A stretch of 7,394 bases of DNA from a virus, in the IMG/VR virus record IMGVR_UViG_3300036763_000250; one strand, written 5' to 3'. Below, piece by piece: positions 1,926-6,279 of the stretch. Under the pieces are notes generated by a model. That model was not told where the DNA came from and did no database searches. It saw only the letters and a list, made by a program, of their open reading frames with translations. The first letter of the stretch is position 1. The number at the start of each line of letters is the position of its first letter. Made by a program: the position numbers and the translations under genes.

Positions 1926-2239
1926 TGCCGGCAGTTATCGCGTTATTCCTACGTTTACTCGGGGCGTCTCTTGTTCCGCTAGGTTGGCGGTTGTTGCGTG
2001 GTCTTGGCTTTGCCGCGTTCACGTTTACCGGCATTCAATTGATGATGGATCAGGCCAAGGACTACGTATTTCAGCAGCTCCTTTCCTTGCCTTCTGAGTG
2101 GGTGCAGATGATTGGTCTGCTCAAACTCGATGTCTGTTTCAACATCTTGTTTTCAGCCTATGTTGCCCGTGCCGTCCTGTGGGGCATGAATCAAGCGACA
2201 GGCAGTAAATCCGGCGTTCGCTGGGGAGGAGGGGCCTAA
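1925..2239 (+). CDS. g6p-like minor coat / membrane protein (Ace position)
   Basis: The 104-aa protein has several hydrophobic segments. It lies between the g3p-like and Zot-like genes. Its start overlaps the g3p stop (TGATG) and its stop overlaps the zot start (TAATG). Confidence 0.6.
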   Translation: MPAVIALFLRLLGASLVPLGWRLLRGLGFAAFTFTGIQLMMDQAKDYVFQQLLSLPSEWVQMIGLLKLDVCFNILFSAYVARAVLWGMNQATGSKSGVRWGGGA

Positions 2240-3453
2240 TGCTTATTCTGAGAACTGGCCTGCCGGGCTCTGGAAAAACGCTCAACACCATCCGCGAAAT
2301 TGAGCTTGAACATGGTCCAGATCCTAAGAACCCTGCAAAGGAGCTTCGGACGGTTTACTACTACGGAATTCCCGACCTCGACTTAGACAAGCTGGGTTGC
2401 AACTGGGTCGAATTCGACACGCCGGATGAGTGGTACAACCTGCCAGACGGCTCCGTCATCGTCATGGACGAGGCTCAGCGGGTTTTTGGTGCGCAGGATG
2501 GCCGCAAGGCACGACCCGAGAAGGTCGCCCGCTTCGAGACTCACCGTCACCAGGGCTTCGATATCCACCTGATCACGCAGCACCCCAGCTTGATCATGAG
2601 CCACGTCAGGAAGCTGGTCGGCAAGCACATCAACATGTACCGGCCTTACGGTGGAAAGCGCCTGCTGCGGCATGAATACGAGTTTTGTATCGACAGCCCG
2701 GAGAAGCGCAGTCAGTTCAAGCTTGCCCAGGAGCGCCGTGTAAAGCTCGATGCGAAGTACTTCGGTGTCTACAAGTCCGCCACGGTGCACACGCACAAAT
2801 TCAAGTTGCCAAATTACGTGTGGTACATCCCGCCGCTGGTTCTGTTCATTGGCGCAGCTGCCGTATATGTGACGTCGCTTTACAGTCCAAAGGATGCGCC
2901 TCCGATCGCTGATGCTGCCGTTGATTCGGTTCCTGTTGCGGGTTCCGATTTGAATGCAAAGCCCACTGCAGTATCTGCACCAGGTGCTCAGCAAGCTCCG
3001 TTGACGCCAGAGCAGTACGCCGAAAGCTTTAGCCCCAGGATTTCAGATGTGCCGTCCAGCGCTCCGCGTTATGACAGCCTGACAGAGCCGAAGTCCTTCC
3101 CGCGGCTTACCTGTGTGTCCAGTTTTGACCCTCTGCTGATCGACAAGCTTTATCGTCGTGGTGCGCCGGTTGGTCAGACTGATGGCAGGCAGTACGCTTG
3201 CCAGTGCTACACGCAGCAAATGACGCGCCACGACACCAGCGCGGAATTCTGTATGTCTGTGGTTGAGAATGGCTACTTTGATGACACGCTGCCTGACAAG
3301 CTCGCTGCCACGCAGCACGTGTTCAACTCAGATCGACAACAACCGGCTGCTGCAACAGGGCGAGTGCCCGCAGCCCAGATGCCGCAGCCGGCAGCCAACT
3401 ACGTCCCGGCGGTAACGGTGGTTAATTCTGGCAAGCCTGGGCACCTTTGGTAA
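2239..3453 (+). CDS. Zot-like assembly ATPase (g1p family)
   Basis: SD GGAGGAGG lies upstream. The N-terminal Walker A motif is GLPGSGKT (aa 7-14) and the Walker B-like motif is VIVMDEAQ. A single TM helix (WYIPPLVLFIGAAAVYVTSLY, about aa 195-215) is followed by a Pro/Ala-rich, Cys-containing periplasmic C-terminal domain. This is the standard Zot/pI topology and position. Confidence 0.9.
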   Translation: MLILRTGLPGSGKTLNTIREIELEHGPDPKNPAKELRTVYYYGIPDLDLDKLGCNWVEFDTPDEWYNLPDGSVIVMDEAQRVFGAQDGRKARPEKVARFETHRHQGFDIHLITQHPSLIMSHVRKLVGKHINMYRPYGGKRLLRHEYEFCIDSPEKRSQFKLAQERRVKLDAKYFGVYKSATVHTHKFKLPNYVWYIPPLVLFIGAAAVYVTSLYSPKDAPPIADAAVDSVPVAGSDLNAKPTAVSAPGAQQAPLTPEQYAESFSPRISDVPSSAPRYDSLTEPKSFPRLTCVSSFDPLLIDKLYRRGAPVGQTDGRQYACQCYTQQMTRHDTSAEFCMSVVENGYFDDTLPDKLAATQHVFNSDRQQPAAATGRVPAAQMPQPAANYVPAVTVVNSGKPGHLW

Positions 3454-3462
3454 AAGCCAATG

Positions 3463-3551
3463 CTTCGCATAATGCGTAACGTTACGTTAAGTCGGCTCCG
3501 GAAAATGCTGTAAGCTCCGGGGGCGATTTAGACGTAACGTCCATTATGCGA
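3463..3551. other. Putative XerC/XerD-dependent attP: two dif-like sites in inverted orientation, foldable into a forked hairpin on the + ssDNA
   Basis: Site A (+ strand, 3464-3492) reads TTCGCATAA-TGCGTAACG-TTACGTTAAGT. Site B (reverse complement of 3525-3551) reads TCGCATAA-TGGACG-TTACGTCTAAAT. Compare dif, GGTGCGCATAA-TGTATA-TTATGTTAAAT. The pairings are 3465-3474/3542-3551, 3479-3487/3532-3540 and 3488-3494/3524-3530. An internal loop falls at the central-region position. Confidence 0.6.
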
Positions 3552-3778
3552 TGCCCCTCCTAGACCTCCCTGAATATCTGTTACGTGACGCACGACTCTA
3601 TGCCCCTGGTCGTGATGATCTGGGTGCTGTCCTGCATTTGCTCGAGGACTACGGCCGGCTTGTCGGTGAGCTTCGCCAGGTGCGCCGCCGGCTAGCGCAA
3701 TTGGACGAGGAGGGCGCTGCCTTGGATGCCCGTCTAGCGGCCCTTCAGGACGCCTGCCGGGCGATTCTGGAGCTTTAG
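3551..3778 (+). CDS. Hypothetical 75-aa protein, predicted helical / coiled-coil (Leu/Arg/Ala/Asp-rich)
   Basis: This is the only long ORF in the interval. First codon positions are G-rich, as in coding sequence, and there is a heptad-like LxxLxxxL pattern (ELRQVRRRLAQLDEEGAALDARLAALQDA). No recognisable SD precedes it. The ATG abuts the attP-like arm. The stop TAG (3776-3778) overlaps the stop of the convergent gene. Confidence 0.45.
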   Translation: MPLLDLPEYLLRDARLYAPGRDDLGAVLHLLEDYGRLVGELRQVRRRLAQLDEEGAALDARLAALQDACRAILEL

Positions 3779-4311
3779 ACGCACCCGTCTTCCACGAGCC
3801 TGTATTGCTTGTTGCTCCCTGCGATCTTGTTATCGATAACTCGATCTAGCTGCCGGCTCGCTTCCTCTCCGTAGATCCCCGCAACCAGGTTCTGCCATTT
3901 CCCCGACCCAGTCCGCGCCTGTAGCGTGTAGGTCTTGTCCTCGGGCAGCTCTGCTGCTGGTTGATCGCGGTGGCGTTTCACCTTTGCCGGTTTTTCGTTA
4001 CGTTGCGCTAGCTTTGTATCGGCCTCTTGGATCATTCGCGCCTGCTCTACGATTACCCGGGCGTACTTCCTGTTTTCGGCCTTCGCCTGGTCTAGTTCCT
4101 TGGCTAGTGAGTCGATTTGTGCTGCCAGGGCGCGCGCGTCTTCCCATGTCGTTCCGGTCTCTGGTTTTTCGTTACGTTGCGCTTTTTGCCGTTCGCGGTA
4201 CAGCCGCTGCCGCTCGGCATTGCTGAGCGCCTGGCCTGTGGCCGGACGCCCGCGACCGCGCTTCTCGTCCAGGGGCAGGGATTGGGTTTGCTTTTCCAGG
4301 TGGTCGATCAT
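3775..4311 (-). CDS. Hypothetical 178-aa protein with a basic AT-hook-like N-terminus (KRGRGRPATG...AERQRLYRERQ), a central coiled coil and a small C-terminal domain; putative DNA-binding
   Basis: The preferred start is ATG 4311 (MIDHLEKQ...), with GGAG 8 nt upstream. The ORF-track start at 4371 would lie upstream of the TATAAT box. The protein has a charged helical middle, contains AQRNEKP twice exactly 58 aa apart, and has no TM segment. I do not recognise a family. Confidence 0.65.
   Translation of the reverse strand: MIDHLEKQTQSLPLDEKRGRGRPATGQALSNAERQRLYRERQKAQRNEKPETGTTWEDARALAAQIDSLAKELDQAKAENRKYARVIVEQARMIQEADTKLAQRNEKPAKVKRHRDQPAAELPEDKTYTLQARTGSGKWQNLVAGIYGEEASRQLDRVIDNKIAGSNKQYRLVEDGCV
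3989..4009. repeat. Exact 21-bp repeat, copy 1 (GGTTTTTCGTTACGTTGCGCT) inside the 178-aa gene
   Basis: It is identical to 4163-4183, 174 bp (58 codons) away. On the minus strand it contains the core CGTAACGAAAAAC. Confidence 0.9.
4163..4183. repeat. Exact 21-bp repeat, copy 2 (GGTTTTTCGTTACGTTGCGCT) inside the 178-aa gene
   Basis: It is identical to 3989-4009. A third copy of its 3' 9-mer, CGTTGCGCT, lies in the 5' UTR at 4328-4336. Confidence 0.9.
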
Positions 4312-4344
4312 GGTGTCAGCTCCATTGCGTTGCGCTATGGAGTA

Positions 4345-4350
4345 ATTATA
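4345..4350 (-). promoter_or_regulatory. Candidate -10 box (perfect TATAAT on the minus strand) for the 178-aa gene
   Basis: The reverse complement of ATTATA at 4345-4350 is TATAAT, 33 nt upstream of ATG 4311. The -35 region is weak (TGGTGT) and is overlapped by iteron 1. Confidence 0.45.
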
Positions 4351-4354
4351 GTTA

Positions 4355-4441
4355 CGTAACGATAAATACACCAGCGTAACGTAACGATAAATACGACCGT
4401 TCGTCGGCTATTTGTAACGCCATGCGCGTAACGACAAATCA
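4355..4441 (+). repeat. Three direct iteron-like repeats CGTAACGA(T/C)AAAT(A/C) at 4355-4369, 4380-4394 and 4427-4441, plus an extra CGTAACG at 4375
   Basis: CGTAACGATAAATAC occurs twice exactly, 25 bp apart. CGTAACGACAAATCA is a third, degenerate copy. All lie immediately upstream of, or overlapping, the putative promoter of the minus-strand 178-aa gene. Confidence 0.8.
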
Positions 4442-4548
4442 ACTCGGATTCGCCCCGAGCCCGGCCCCAGGCCGCCCCTTTACTGTCCAACCCGCCTTTC
4501 GCTCTCCGTGGTCATAGGCTCAGCCGCGTGCGGTACACCCGCACATTT

Positions 4549-4625
4549 GCGATCGGCCCGGAGGGGCGAGGGGCGAAGCCCTGCCTTTGGGTGCCTCGAT
4601 CTGGCGCCCGGAGGGGTGGGGGTGC
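4549..4625 (+). repeat. Imperfect ~25-nt direct repeat containing GCCCGGAGGGG (4556-4566 and 4606-4616), G-tract rich
   Basis: Copy 1 is GCGATCGGCCCGGAGGGGCGAGGGGCG and copy 2 is TCGATCTGGCGCCCGGAGGGGTGGGGGTG. No ORF of 60 aa or more is present on either strand. Confidence 0.7.
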
Positions 4626-4639
4626 TGTAACACCCCCAC
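4616..4639 (+). other. Perfect 9-bp GC-rich hairpin (GTGGGGGTG ctgtaa CACCCCCAC)
   Basis: The arms are exactly complementary, the loop is 6 nt, and TTTGG follows on the + strand. Confidence 0.75.
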
Positions 4640-4643
4640 TTTG

Positions 4644-4664
4644 GTATGCAATCGCATACTTTTT
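4644..4664 (+). terminator. Terminator-like hairpin on the + strand (GTATGC aatc GCATAC + TTTTT)
   Basis: The 6-bp perfect stem has a 4-nt loop and is followed by 5 T. The T-run follows the stem only in + orientation, although the nearest gene (XRE) is on the minus strand. Confidence 0.5.
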
Positions 4665-4666
4665 GG

Positions 4667-4996
4667 CTATCTGAGTGCTTCTTGCTCGTAGCCGAACAGG
4701 ACTCCTTTTAGAGCAATTTTTGCCTGATTCCTGATATCTGCGGGCAGTGCATCGAAGCGCTTCAAAATCGGTGCTATGTCTTCGGATACTGACCGTTCTT
4801 GTTCGTCTAGCAGTAACTCATCAGTCGTTGTCCCGAGTACTTTCGCTAGGGCTACAACGGTGTCACCTGCTGGAATAGCCTTGCCGGCCTCGTATGACAC
4901 GTAGCTTGATTTGCTGACGTGGGCAGCCTCCCACACATGGCGTTGAGTCAGCTTTTTAGCCTTTCTGCACGCCTTGAGGTTCTCGGCGATTGTCAT
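4667..4996 (-). CDS. XRE-family (Cro/CI-type HTH) transcriptional repressor; candidate phage lysogeny/immunity repressor (RstR / Pf4r position)
   Basis: The HTH_3-like signature is LKACRKAKKLTQRHVWEAAHVSKSSYVSYEAGKAIP. The gene is divergent from the Rep gene. The preferred start is ATG 4996, with GAGGA 7 nt upstream (109 aa). The alternative ATG 5023 would add 9 aa. Confidence 0.85.
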   Translation of the reverse strand: MTIAENLKACRKAKKLTQRHVWEAAHVSKSSYVSYEAGKAIPAGDTVVALAKVLGTTTDELLLDEQERSVSEDIAPILKRFDALPADIRNQAKIALKGVLFGYEQEALR

Positions 4997-5023
4997 GGCT
5001 CTATCCTCTTGATCGGTGTTCAT

Positions 5024-5154
5024 TTCCCGACCTTAATCGCTGGCTGCTTATACAGTGCCGAAATCCTGATACATTTCTGCTTGCTTTCTGATAGCTGCAA
5101 ATCCTATGATCCTGTCCATCAAGTATTGGTTTCCTGATATTGACAGGGATTGGC
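5024..5154. promoter_or_regulatory. Divergent promoter/operator region between repressor and Rep
   Basis: The repeated motif T(C/T)CTGATA occurs at 5064-5071, 5086-5093 and 5132-5139. The related AAATCCTaTGAT is at 5099-5110, compared with AAATCCTGAT at 5061-5070. The candidate + strand promoter has -35 TTGCTT (5081-5086), an 18-nt spacer and -10 TATGAT (5105-5110). The candidate minus-strand -10 is TATAAG (5052-5047). Confidence 0.55.
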
Positions 5155-6279
5155 ATGTTCTACGATTGGATCAAGGCATATCAGGATTATGACTACGACC
5201 TTCCGAAGGTTGGTGACGTCATCTGTCGCCGCTTTGATTCCGAGACCGAAGAGCTCCTGTCAACGAGCGTTCCTGCCTTCTTTGCAGAGGGTAGCTACTG
5301 CACCACGTTCCGCATTCATGTGTGCGGGCGCCGCATCACAGTTGATGGCAATGCCTCCCGGTTAAATCGCCTGGATAACGTCTTCGGCATCGAACGTCTC
5401 GACGACTGCATGAAGGTGATTAACGCGCTGCTCGCTGAGTACGGTCTGCCGCCTATGACCAAGTGCAAGAACATCCAGCGCCTTCAAGACGGTTCGTCGA
5501 TTGCCGACGGCGCGGTTTTTCAGCGCCTCGACCTGACCAGTAATTTTTATGTAGGGCAGGGCAACGAAAGGGCGTTTCTCCGGGGTATTTCGAGCCAGCG
5601 TTTCCGTAATTCGATTGCCTATCTGTACCCCGATGGCAATACATGCGTCTGGACCCCGAAGGGCGGTGAGAAGGCCGGCTCTCTGGTTTATCCCGGTAAT
5701 TACAACAAAGCGGCTGAGTTAGACGCTCACCTGTTGCCCAAGGTCAAACGTACTTTTGGCGAAGATTCTGACGAATTCCGCTACGTGCGGGAGTTGCGCG
5801 ATCACTGTAGAGCGGTCGGCATGGTGCGTTCCGAACTCAAGTGCCGTTCGGAATATTTGAAGAGGGAAGGGCTCCGGTTTTGGGGGCTTTTCGATGAACA
5901 GAAACTTGTGGAAATCCACAGGGGGTTTCTCATGGTTGGCGAGAAGTGCGAGATCAATAATTTTGATCAACTGACAGTGGCGGACGAGCTGCTGGCCAAG
6001 GGCATTTGTGAGCACCGTAAAGCTGCAATGACTACCGCTGGTTATTCGGCGCTTTGGCAGTCTGGTCAGCAGTTTGACTTCGAAACTTCGGCTGTTAAGA
6101 AGCACCGTGCGCGCTTACGGCAGATCGGTATTGATATCAAGTTGCCGTTCGATGCTACTCGCCACGGTGTTGTTTTCATCCGCAACGTCCGCGAAATCGA
6201 GCGTGTTTTCGAGCTGCCGACTCCGGCGTTCTATCGTCCTGCCGTGATCCCGCGTCACCTGCAATTGGTGGCTGCATGA
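5155..6279 (+). CDS. Rolling-circle replication initiation protein (gene II / RstA / Phage_CRI-like)
   Basis: The 374-aa protein starts at ATG 5155, with AGGGA 5 nt upstream. The ORF-track TTG 5140 is less likely. The N-terminal FYDWI and the block ITVDGNASRLNRLDNVFG match, from memory, the IDWL and GNxSK..(G)HNVFG signatures of filamentous-phage replication proteins. It is the first gene of the + strand operon, next to the repressor as in CTXphi. Confidence 0.8.
   Translation: MFYDWIKAYQDYDYDLPKVGDVICRRFDSETEELLSTSVPAFFAEGSYCTTFRIHVCGRRITVDGNASRLNRLDNVFGIERLDDCMKVINALLAEYGLPPMTKCKNIQRLQDGSSIADGAVFQRLDLTSNFYVGQGNERAFLRGISSQRFRNSIAYLYPDGNTCVWTPKGGEKAGSLVYPGNYNKAAELDAHLLPKVKRTFGEDSDEFRYVRELRDHCRAVGMVRSELKCRSEYLKREGLRFWGLFDEQKLVEIHRGFLMVGEKCEINNFDQLTVADELLAKGICEHRKAAMTTAGYSALWQSGQQFDFETSAVKKHRARLRQIGIDIKLPFDATRHGVVFIRNVREIERVFELPTPAFYRPAVIPRHLQLVAA

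Follow-up and report, generated by a model that had tools for sequence, protein, structure and literature searches.

Operators lying inside coding regions are of a known kind: auxiliary operators within coding sequences include lac O2 in lacZ, lac O3 at the end of lacI, gal OI in galE and purR O2 in purR. In the lambda origin the iterons that bind the O protein lie inside gene O itself, in the segment that encodes an inter-domain linker, and specificity and sites are therefore co-inherited in recombinants. Short direct or inverted promoter repeats that are bound cooperatively by a small dimeric autoregulator are also well established, for instance for the Omega repressor of inc18 plasmids and for ParR/parC; Omega and ParR have ribbon-helix-helix (RHH) folds, and their sites lie outside the coding sequence of the regulator. 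In the case of lac O3 the site acts as a roadblock on transcription of lacI, resulting in autoregulation of LacI (PMC3711431). As regards filamentous phages, proteins termed phiRSS1-ORF11-like, or "AT-hook motif protein", are encoded downstream of pI in phages of Ralstonia and Cupriavidus, and have been described either as proteins whose function is unknown or as putative regulators; neither operators nor intragenic copies of operators are reported for them in the two papers concerned (PMC4471427, PMC10011098).

The DNA analysed here (the window, 7394 bases in length) is a complete-looking filamentous phage (inovirus) genome of 7.4 kb. It contains a coat-like ORF and a pIII-like ORF, Zot/pI (2239-3453), a 75-aa ORF designated orf75 (3551-3778), a gene for a 178-aa protein on the minus strand (3775-4311), an XRE-type HTH gene, likewise on the minus strand and just upstream of the 178-aa gene (4667-5023), and a pII-like rolling-circle initiator (G2P; 5140-6279), downstream of which there are some small ORFs. 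The 178-aa gene, an ORF backed by homologues, follows zot and orf75 in the opposite orientation and is convergent with orf75, the two stop codons overlapping at 3775-3778; its ATG is at 4309-4311, with a Shine-Dalgarno sequence, GGAG, at 4320-4323. It has in common with the phiRSS1-ORF11-like proteins its homology, its position downstream of pI/Zot and an N-terminal RGRP, and tblastn finds distant homologues in phages RSS30, RSCq, RSBg and RS603 (E = 2e-5 to 7e-4). Most relatives belong to phages and prophages of Pseudomonas. When 1.84 billion representatives were searched with a profile, the number of clusters (at 50% identity) was about 250 for E <= 1e-10, rising to about 1,150 for E <= 1e-3, and for comparative purposes approximately 100 related loci were gathered from IMG/VR, GTDB genomes, Logan/ENA/JGI contigs and GenBank phages. 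In a megablast search with the whole window the only matches were a distant one to zot and an intergenic one of 68 nt, and an Rfam search of the window gave no match.

The preliminary description of this DNA drew attention to an exact 21-mer, GGTTTTTCGTTACGTTGCGCT, that occurs at 3989-4009 and again at 4163-4183, 174 bp apart and inside the 178-aa gene, and this is indeed the case. No further copies are present in the window when up to three mismatches are allowed, the corresponding figure in 200 shuffles being 0. On the sense strand of the gene both copies read AGCGCAACGTAACGAAAAACC and encode AQRNEKP, in the contexts K-AQRNEKP-E and L-AQRNEKP-A. In-gene site 1 (4163-4183, minus strand; gene nt 129-149, residues A44-P50), with its core CGTAACGA at 4169-4176, codes for the end of a basic helix and for a first linker, while in-gene site 2 (3989-4009, minus strand; gene nt 303-323, residues A102-P108) carries the same 21-mer at the junction of a coiled coil with a second linker. 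A shorter core of 12 nt, CGTAACGAnAAA, is found five times in the window against an expectation of 0.15 (0 of 200 shuffles gave five), and all five copies in the genome are confined to 3991-4438. As had been claimed, three of these lie upstream of the gene in the opposite orientation to the two within it: the in-gene copies are on the minus strand (3991-4002 and 4165-4176) and the promoter copies on the plus strand (4355-4366, 4380-4391 and 4427-4438). Of 19 positions in the middle promoter site (4373-4391), 17 are the same in the in-gene copies; each of the latter consists of one perfect half-site together with a degenerate GCAAC, and they lie 186 and 360 bp downstream of the proximal promoter site. 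The repeat as observed is far beyond chance.

The upstream copies belong to a conserved promoter cassette. The putative -10 hexamer of the 178-aa gene, a TATAAT read from the sequence (4345-4350, minus strand; the -35 is weak), is kept in all three of the specificity types, or groups, A, B and C that can be distinguished among the relatives. Immediately next to it is a promoter-proximal putative operator, O1 (4351-4369, plus strand; gene-sense GTATTTATCGTTACGTAAC), whose palindrome GTTACGTAAC abuts the -10 box; beyond this are the putative operators O2 (4373-4394, plus strand; AGCGTAACGTAACGATAAATAC), which provides the best match to the in-gene sites, and O3 (4427-4439, plus strand; CGTAACGACAAAT). 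Between O3 and O2 there is in addition a conserved box, CCGACGAACGG, with an extra half-site GCGTTAC (4397-4418, minus strand), seen in groups A and B. Written in gene sense, the conserved cassette runs ...ATTTATCGTTACG(N)...CCGACGAACGG..ATTTATCGTTACGTTACG..TATTTATCGTTACGTAAC-TATAAT-..-GGAG-..-ATG, and TAAAT or AAAAA adjoins the core at every site. In some relatives this same cassette stands ahead of an extra ORF of 72-88 aa, which is then followed by the homologue, and the distance from the proximal operator to the in-gene sites is in these cases 415-460 bp, as compared with 186 bp in the window. The layout is shared by the three specificity types, the proximal operator (GTTACGTAAC in A, GTGACGCGTCAC in B and GTAACGTTAC in C) in each case standing directly against TATAAT. 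Since this is so in all three, the upstream repeats, which the preliminary description had called iterons, appear to behave as promoter operators and not as replication iterons. A scan with a strict sigma-70 consensus found no full promoter and no -35, and because there is no canonical -35 the sign of regulation is uncertain, activation being possible instead of repression. The preliminary description also pointed to a third appearance of part of the repeat, as a 9-mer in the 5' UTR; this is present, within a partial copy, TTGCGTTGCGCTA, between the -10 box and the Shine-Dalgarno sequence (4325-4337, plus strand), but it has neither the A-tract nor an intact core and is kept in the closest relatives only rather than throughout the family, and that it has a function is doubtful. 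A cluster of GTAAC/GTTAC pentamers at 3412-3585 was also considered as a source of extra operators and rejected, since these pentamers belong to a dif-like hairpin.

If the in-gene sites matter as DNA, one would expect this to be visible in the choice of synonymous codons, and it was on this comparison that the preliminary description proposed that the question be decided, with divergent codons beneath a conserved AQRNEKP as the adverse outcome. In a codon alignment of 22 group-A genes, the conserved residues 20-43 are each encoded by 2-5 different codons (3-5 for each of the six Arg columns in this stretch), whereas Q45, R46 and N47 are each encoded by a single codon in all of the 20-21 group-A genes that retain the residue. 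In 58 unique homologue genes, which between them have 44 QRN or SRN sites (two of these being SRN), the Arg codon is CGT at 44 of 44 sites, whereas in the rest of these genes CGT accounts for 53 of 483 Arg codons (11%); the Gln codon is CAA at 42 of 42, as against 39% elsewhere, the two SRN sites carrying Ser; and the Asn within the core is always AAC. The outcome of the comparison favours selection at the level of the DNA.

A second line of evidence comes from relatives in which the site is retained while the peptide is not. In group B (the P. aeruginosa type) the motif CGTCACGAAAA occurs at gene nt 149, where it encodes PSRK, and at nt 282, where it encodes RVTKK, that is to say in different frames; in L018, L021, L029, L036 and L083 site 2 is inverted, and encodes LSLRG; the in-gene sites of group C encode xNVT, and those of L069, L071 and L072 encode VTVT. 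The Ralstonia phage RSCq, an RSS-type relative, displays the same phenomenon with a motif of its own, which encodes KSVTxSNGN and does so twice. As in the window, the in-gene sites have the recognition sequence of the promoter operators in RSCq, L069, L071 and L072 as well as in groups B and C. Some relatives have only one in-gene site, or none. For a quantitative assessment, the most-repeated upstream 8-mer of each locus was counted in the gene and in synonymous-codon shuffles of it (this replaced a more generic test, based on how long an exact match the gene shares with the 400 nt upstream of it, that was too blunt, the chance level being 9-10 nt). Family-wide there are 74 in-gene matches, compared with 12.3 +/- 3.8 in the shuffled genes (maximum 25 in 300 shuffles), while for the window itself the automatically chosen 8-mer, CGTAACGA, is present twice in the gene against 0.24 expected (p about 0.007). 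On the strength of these comparisons among homologues, the sites can be shown to be selected as DNA, and the AQRNEKP peptide would then be largely a by-product of the DNA site. The preliminary description had left a choice between such selection and very recent conversion. The codon data and the frame-shifted and inverted copies speak for the former; as to the latter, it need not be invoked, because the 21-bp span of identity amounts to the conserved site plus two or three bases and breaks off directly beyond that site, at positions that are wobble or non-synonymous: a Pro wobble position at one end, a Lys/Leu codon at the other.

Some indication of what the sites mean for the protein can be had from structure prediction. 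AlphaFold2, run with a 118-sequence alignment, gives a disordered N-terminus containing RGRP (the disorder being predicted with modest confidence), a helix at residues 31-46, a break containing Pro and Gly at 47-55, a very confidently predicted coiled-coil helix at 56-105, a disordered stretch at 106-126 and a small beta-beta-alpha-beta domain. The 16 residues of the first helix, 31-46, are basic in character (NAERQRLYRERQKAQR), and the AT-hook-like KRGRGRP that precedes it is invariant in homologues, with G21, R22 and P23 conserved. Given these helix limits, the two sites (residues 44-50 and 102-108) fall on the two helix-to-linker boundaries of the predicted structure, which, as modelled, are places where arbitrary peptides are tolerated. 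The segment between the sites is hypervariable among homologues and the C-terminal domain is freely swapped, and thus the sites also coincide with mosaic junctions. Searches of Pfam, NCBIfam, PHROGs and PDB sequences, together with Foldseek against the PDB, did not assign the 178-aa protein to any informative family, the matches amounting to coiled-coil noise, a weak SPOR match for some C-terminal variants, a sub-threshold Pfam AT_hook (12.4 bits against a cut-off of 17.4), a PHROG of unknown function (phrog_10506), and an NCBIfam match to a plasmid replication DNA-binding protein that, at E = 0.018, is far short of threshold. In the GenBank record of phage 42-1 the homologue is labelled "replication regulatory protein RepB", but no support for this label was found, and searches of the literature on phage 42-1, RepB-RCR_reg and prokaryotic bZIPs turned up nothing relevant.

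A pointer to what binds these sites is that they covary with the basic helix of the protein. The helix is of type A, [ST]N-AERQR-x-YR, type B, [ST]D-AERAR-R-YR, or type C, TP-AEKQR-A-YR, the overall pattern that tracks operator type being N/D/P-xx-[RK]-[QA]-xx-Y-R, and the promoter operators are correspondingly of the GTAAC type (CGTAACGA, A), the GTCAC type (CGTCACGA, B) or GTAACGTTAC (C). Among 58 loci, the helix type and the operator type agree in all those having an operator within 450 nt upstream, with 0 mismatched, and the in-gene sites nearly always follow suit. Particularly instructive are L022-L024, where C-type operators and a C-type N-terminus are fused to the A-type middle segment of L015 and L020: site 1 in these loci differs from the A form by one A-to-T change, which matches it to the C half-site at the cost of replacing Asn by Tyr. 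Among more distant relatives, N-type helices are found with GTTAC(0-2)GTAAC, P-type helices with everted GTAAC(0-1)GTTAC, and D-type helices with GTGA-type half-sites, and in all the helix residues covary with the half-site in at least eight classes. From this we infer that the binder is probably the product of the 178-aa gene itself. However, there is a clear caveat: with fewer than 200 bp separating the operators from the DNA that codes for the N-terminus, the perfect association of helix and operator could reflect linkage, not recognition.

The basic helix also invites comparison with eukaryotic bZIP proteins. Residues 31-39 of the window's protein, N-A-E-R-Q-R-L-Y-R (N-x2-R-Q-x2-Y-R), have the same spacing as the NxxAQxxFR signature of Pap1/Yap. 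In Pap1 this signature reads the TTAC half-site of TTACGTAA (PMC7261193), a sequence that is bound also by NFIL3 and C/EBP (PMC10941009), and the GTTACGTAAC contained in O1 may be set beside this TTACGTAA of the Pap1/Yap and PAR/NFIL3 types of bZIP. The combination of a bZIP signature, N-x3-[AQ]-x2-[FYSC]-R, with a TTAC or TGAC half-site is seen here, as a resemblance only, in the pairing of NAERQRLYR with GTTACGTAAC and of DAERARRYR with GTGAC..GTCAC, the latter being the group B case in which Ala replaces Gln and the half-site is TGAC. As in bZIPs, a coiled coil comes after the basic helix; unlike in bZIPs, the AT-hook-like RGRP comes before it. When membership of the family was examined directly the outcome was negative. 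Four N-terminal queries gave no match to bZIP_1, bZIP_2 or bZIP_Maf at E <= 10, bZIP is absent from the 25 most-matched families listed for 118 scanned members, and BLASTP against the Pap1 bZIP produced no alignment; moreover, where a bZIP has a continuous helix the prediction shows the Pro/Gly linker break at 47-55, and where a bZIP has a fixed half-site spacing the spacing here is 0, 1 or 2 bp, with direct, inverted and everted arrangements all occurring. On these grounds bZIP membership was rejected, and the resemblance may be convergent or coincidental. It is therefore appropriate to say that the protein may work like a basic helix plus coiled coil, with the AT-hook reading the adjacent A/T tract, and not that it is a bZIP.

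Putting these strands together, the reading we prefer is that the two 21-mers are intragenic copies of the operator in the gene's own promoter, most likely bound by the gene's product, and to this we would assign a probability of roughly 0.55. The recognition element would be a GTAAC half-site followed by an A/T tract, and the protein would dimerise through the coiled coil, connected by a flexible linker to the basic helix, so as to bind sites composed of GTAAC and an A-tract. The proximal operator would fill the spacer beside TATAAT, such that occupation of O1 and O2 would occlude the promoter, and the five sites together would give negative autoregulation, probably of a cooperative kind. The weaker in-gene sites could then raise the local concentration of the protein and stabilise repression by looping, or else block the elongating polymerase, although it should be said that the looping or roadblock mechanism is speculative; the distance between promoter and in-gene sites varies among relatives (about 186 bp or 415-460 bp, as described above). 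Since the operon of orf75 is convergent and the stop codons overlap, such a roadblock could also affect antisense read-through. So far this resembles lac, gal and purR, where copies of a promoter operator lie in the downstream coding region, are weaker, and are supposed to act by looping or as a roadblock. It differs from them in that there are two copies in the regulator's own gene, in linker-coding DNA bracketing a variable dimerisation segment, that the sites are kept across a phage family in which specificity changes, and that the regulator is from an uncharacterised family. Sites inside the gene likewise distinguish the present case from Omega and ParR, as does the lack of an RHH signature in the 178-aa protein.

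Other explanations have to be weighed against this one, and one of them, that AQRNEKP is a repeat at the protein level whose codon identity was left by recent duplication or conversion and which has no function as DNA, would suit the window taken by itself, as the two copies there encode the same heptapeptide in the same frame. It is already contradicted by the homologue sequences, in which the codons stay identical even where the proteins share no more than 35-45% identity, though wobble positions on either side vary, and in which other lineages have other frames, the opposite orientation and other peptides, and we regard it as extremely improbable. It is also very unlikely that the inverted copies exist to pair with the promoter copies in packaged ssDNA or in mRNA as a structural element: the in-gene and O2 copies are complementary at 17 of 19 positions on one strand, but the loops would be of 189-363 nt, the orientation is not conserved (site 2 being inverted in L018-type loci) and the spacing varies. 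Rather more can be said for the view that the sites are mainly short homology blocks for exchange of the coiled-coil and C-terminal modules, with protein binding secondary, given that the two sites precisely bracket the hypervariable middle segment, that there are mosaic homologues with junctions at site 1 and at site 2, and that L022-L024 combine a C-type N-terminus with the A-type middle of L015 and L020. Yet the group B copies share only 11 nt and are in different frames, site 2 is inverted in some phages, and the motif follows the operator type of the promoter, which homology alone does not require; this view is therefore thought unlikely, and it is more probable that modules are exchanged as an incidental result of operator conservation.

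It might alternatively be that the sites are operators but that something else binds them, whether the XRE protein, pII, orf75 or a host factor, the 178-aa protein being merely regulated. The XRE gene (4667-5023) is suitably placed just upstream, but XRE proteins that share 65-75% identity with the window's are found beside operators of types B and C, and in many A-type loci XRE is missing altogether; pII is 38-48% identical in A, B and C alike, and the ranges of orf75 identity in A and C overlap. Because none of these three tracks operator type they were rejected as binders, and with the residues of the basic helix covarying with the half-site in at least eight classes this alternative is regarded as quite improbable. 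A further possibility, also unlikely though less so, is that the five-site array forms a nucleoprotein complex concerned with copy-number control or handcuffing, with partition, or with enhancement of replication. The array adjoins the structured intergenic (origin) region, the coiled coil might serve to bridge DNA molecules, a single locus makes up the regulon, and there are the RepB label of the phage 42-1 homologue and the weak NCBIfam plasmid replication match to consider; however, the latter two are respectively of unstated basis and below threshold, O1 is inside the putative promoter in each of the three groups, a ParA-type partner is lacking, and pII, the rolling-circle initiator, does not covary with the sites. 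The comparison with lambda is relevant at this point, since there too the sites lie in linker-coding DNA of the candidate binder's own gene. In lambda, though, O initiates replication and the iterons constitute the origin, whereas here the initiator is the separate pII-like protein (5140-6279), and its failure to covary with the sites, together with the overlap of the proximal site with the putative promoter, is not what an iteron origin of the lambda O type would show. The suggestion made in the preliminary description of centromere-like behaviour, comparable to parS sites inside parB, is unlikely to be correct, because the 7.4-kb genome has no ParA or ParB; no ATPases were found in it besides Zot/pI, and no ParB, RHH or HTH centromere-binding domains were found in the 178-aa protein.

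With operators in coding regions being a familiar phenomenon, what would be new about the preferred reading is that, throughout a phage family that is diversifying, the sites are placed systematically in the linkers of the regulator itself, and that an uncharacterised DNA-binding module is apparently used. A more ambitious reading takes all the parts jointly: a new prokaryotic module comprising an AT-hook, a single basic recognition helix and a coiled coil, having a code parallel to that of bZIPs, with its own operators placed systematically in linker-coding DNA and linker peptides dictated by the DNA. This can be proposed only tentatively, as something possible but short of probable. If it is true, the code would be that N..Q..[YF]R specifies TTAC, and that Ala in place of Gln specifies TGAC; the linker peptides QRNEK, PSRK, NVT, VTVT and SNGN would be set by the DNA sites, not by what the protein requires; and the specificity module would be self-contained, portable by recombination and capable of being diversified into many orthogonal immunity types.

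The finding, if true, would be a natural case of a DNA-binding site, and not protein function, dictating part of a protein sequence, and one that is documented in many lineages by frame shifts, inversions and single-base specificity switches. It may also amount to a new prokaryotic DNA-recognition architecture with a simple and apparently readable specificity code, of which at least three natural operator-regulator pairs, with more classes in distant relatives, could serve as orthogonal regulatory parts. For the phages themselves, it would provide a testable function for a widespread inovirus gene family, the phiRSS1-ORF11-like and AT-hook proteins included, members of which are found in phages of Pseudomonas and Ralstonia, hosts whose virulence and biofilms are influenced by filamentous phages; and the classes of operator and regulator could explain types of superinfection immunity.

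Between the stop codon of zot (the Zot/pI gene) and the start of orf75, a 75-aa open reading frame, lies an inverted pair of dif-like sequences (window 3461-3549), consisting of CTTCGCATAATGCGTAACGTTACGTTAAGT and an inverted partner that ends in ...CCATTATGCGATG. Folding computation predicts that as plus-strand ssDNA this pair forms a hairpin of about 90 nt, at -31.9 kcal/mol (z = -7.1); the element looks like a folded attP of the CTXphi type for XerCD integration. The same dif-like element occurs upstream of the regulator homologue in the related loci L074-L078. Integrated filamentous phages of the CTXphi type are known to form tandem copies, and tandem copies of the related prophages are likewise seen within single contigs for L002/L003 (IMGVR_UViG_2684622643_000003) and L093/L094 (ENA scaffold_27).

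A second strongly folding stretch is the GC-rich intergenic region running from the operators to the XRE gene (4441-4660), for which the folding computation for ssDNA gives z = -3.45; it is the probable site of the minus-strand origin, of packaging hairpins, or of both. Within it, the stretch 4581-4648 matches Pseudomonas phage 36-2 at 91% identity, the remainder of the two genomes being unrelated at the DNA level.

On the promoter side of the regulator gene, an 11-nt box (minus strand, CCGACGAACGG; 4397-4407) lies between the candidate operators O3 and O2. It is kept in cassettes of both operator-specificity groups A and B despite their different operator cores, and may be a host-factor site or part of a second promoter. 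Group-B operators also stand upstream of the homologue in the 7.3-kb record of Pseudomonas phage 5a-DAzarov (PQ758391.1), whose filing under Caudoviricetes looks like a taxonomic mislabel. In the closest relatives an additional ORF of 72-88 aa, of unknown function, separates the homologue from the operator/promoter cassette (L091, 3735-4001; L093, 3779-3997; L095, 2777-2995; L092, 3012-3245); the window is without it.

In the regulator family itself, at least five unrelated-looking C-terminal domain variants are exchanged on one N-terminal module, as judged from homologues in alignments A1 and A2 and from loci L006, L017, L031 and L047; seven members give weak SPOR-domain matches (best E = 5.5e-4). 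At its 3' end the 178-aa gene overlaps the convergent orf75 (phrog_13909, of unknown function) by their stop codons (3775-3778), with no terminator between the two. Some 50 related loci share this convergent layout, in which orf75 starts near the regulator gene's end, so convergent transcription across the regulator gene seems to be a built-in feature.
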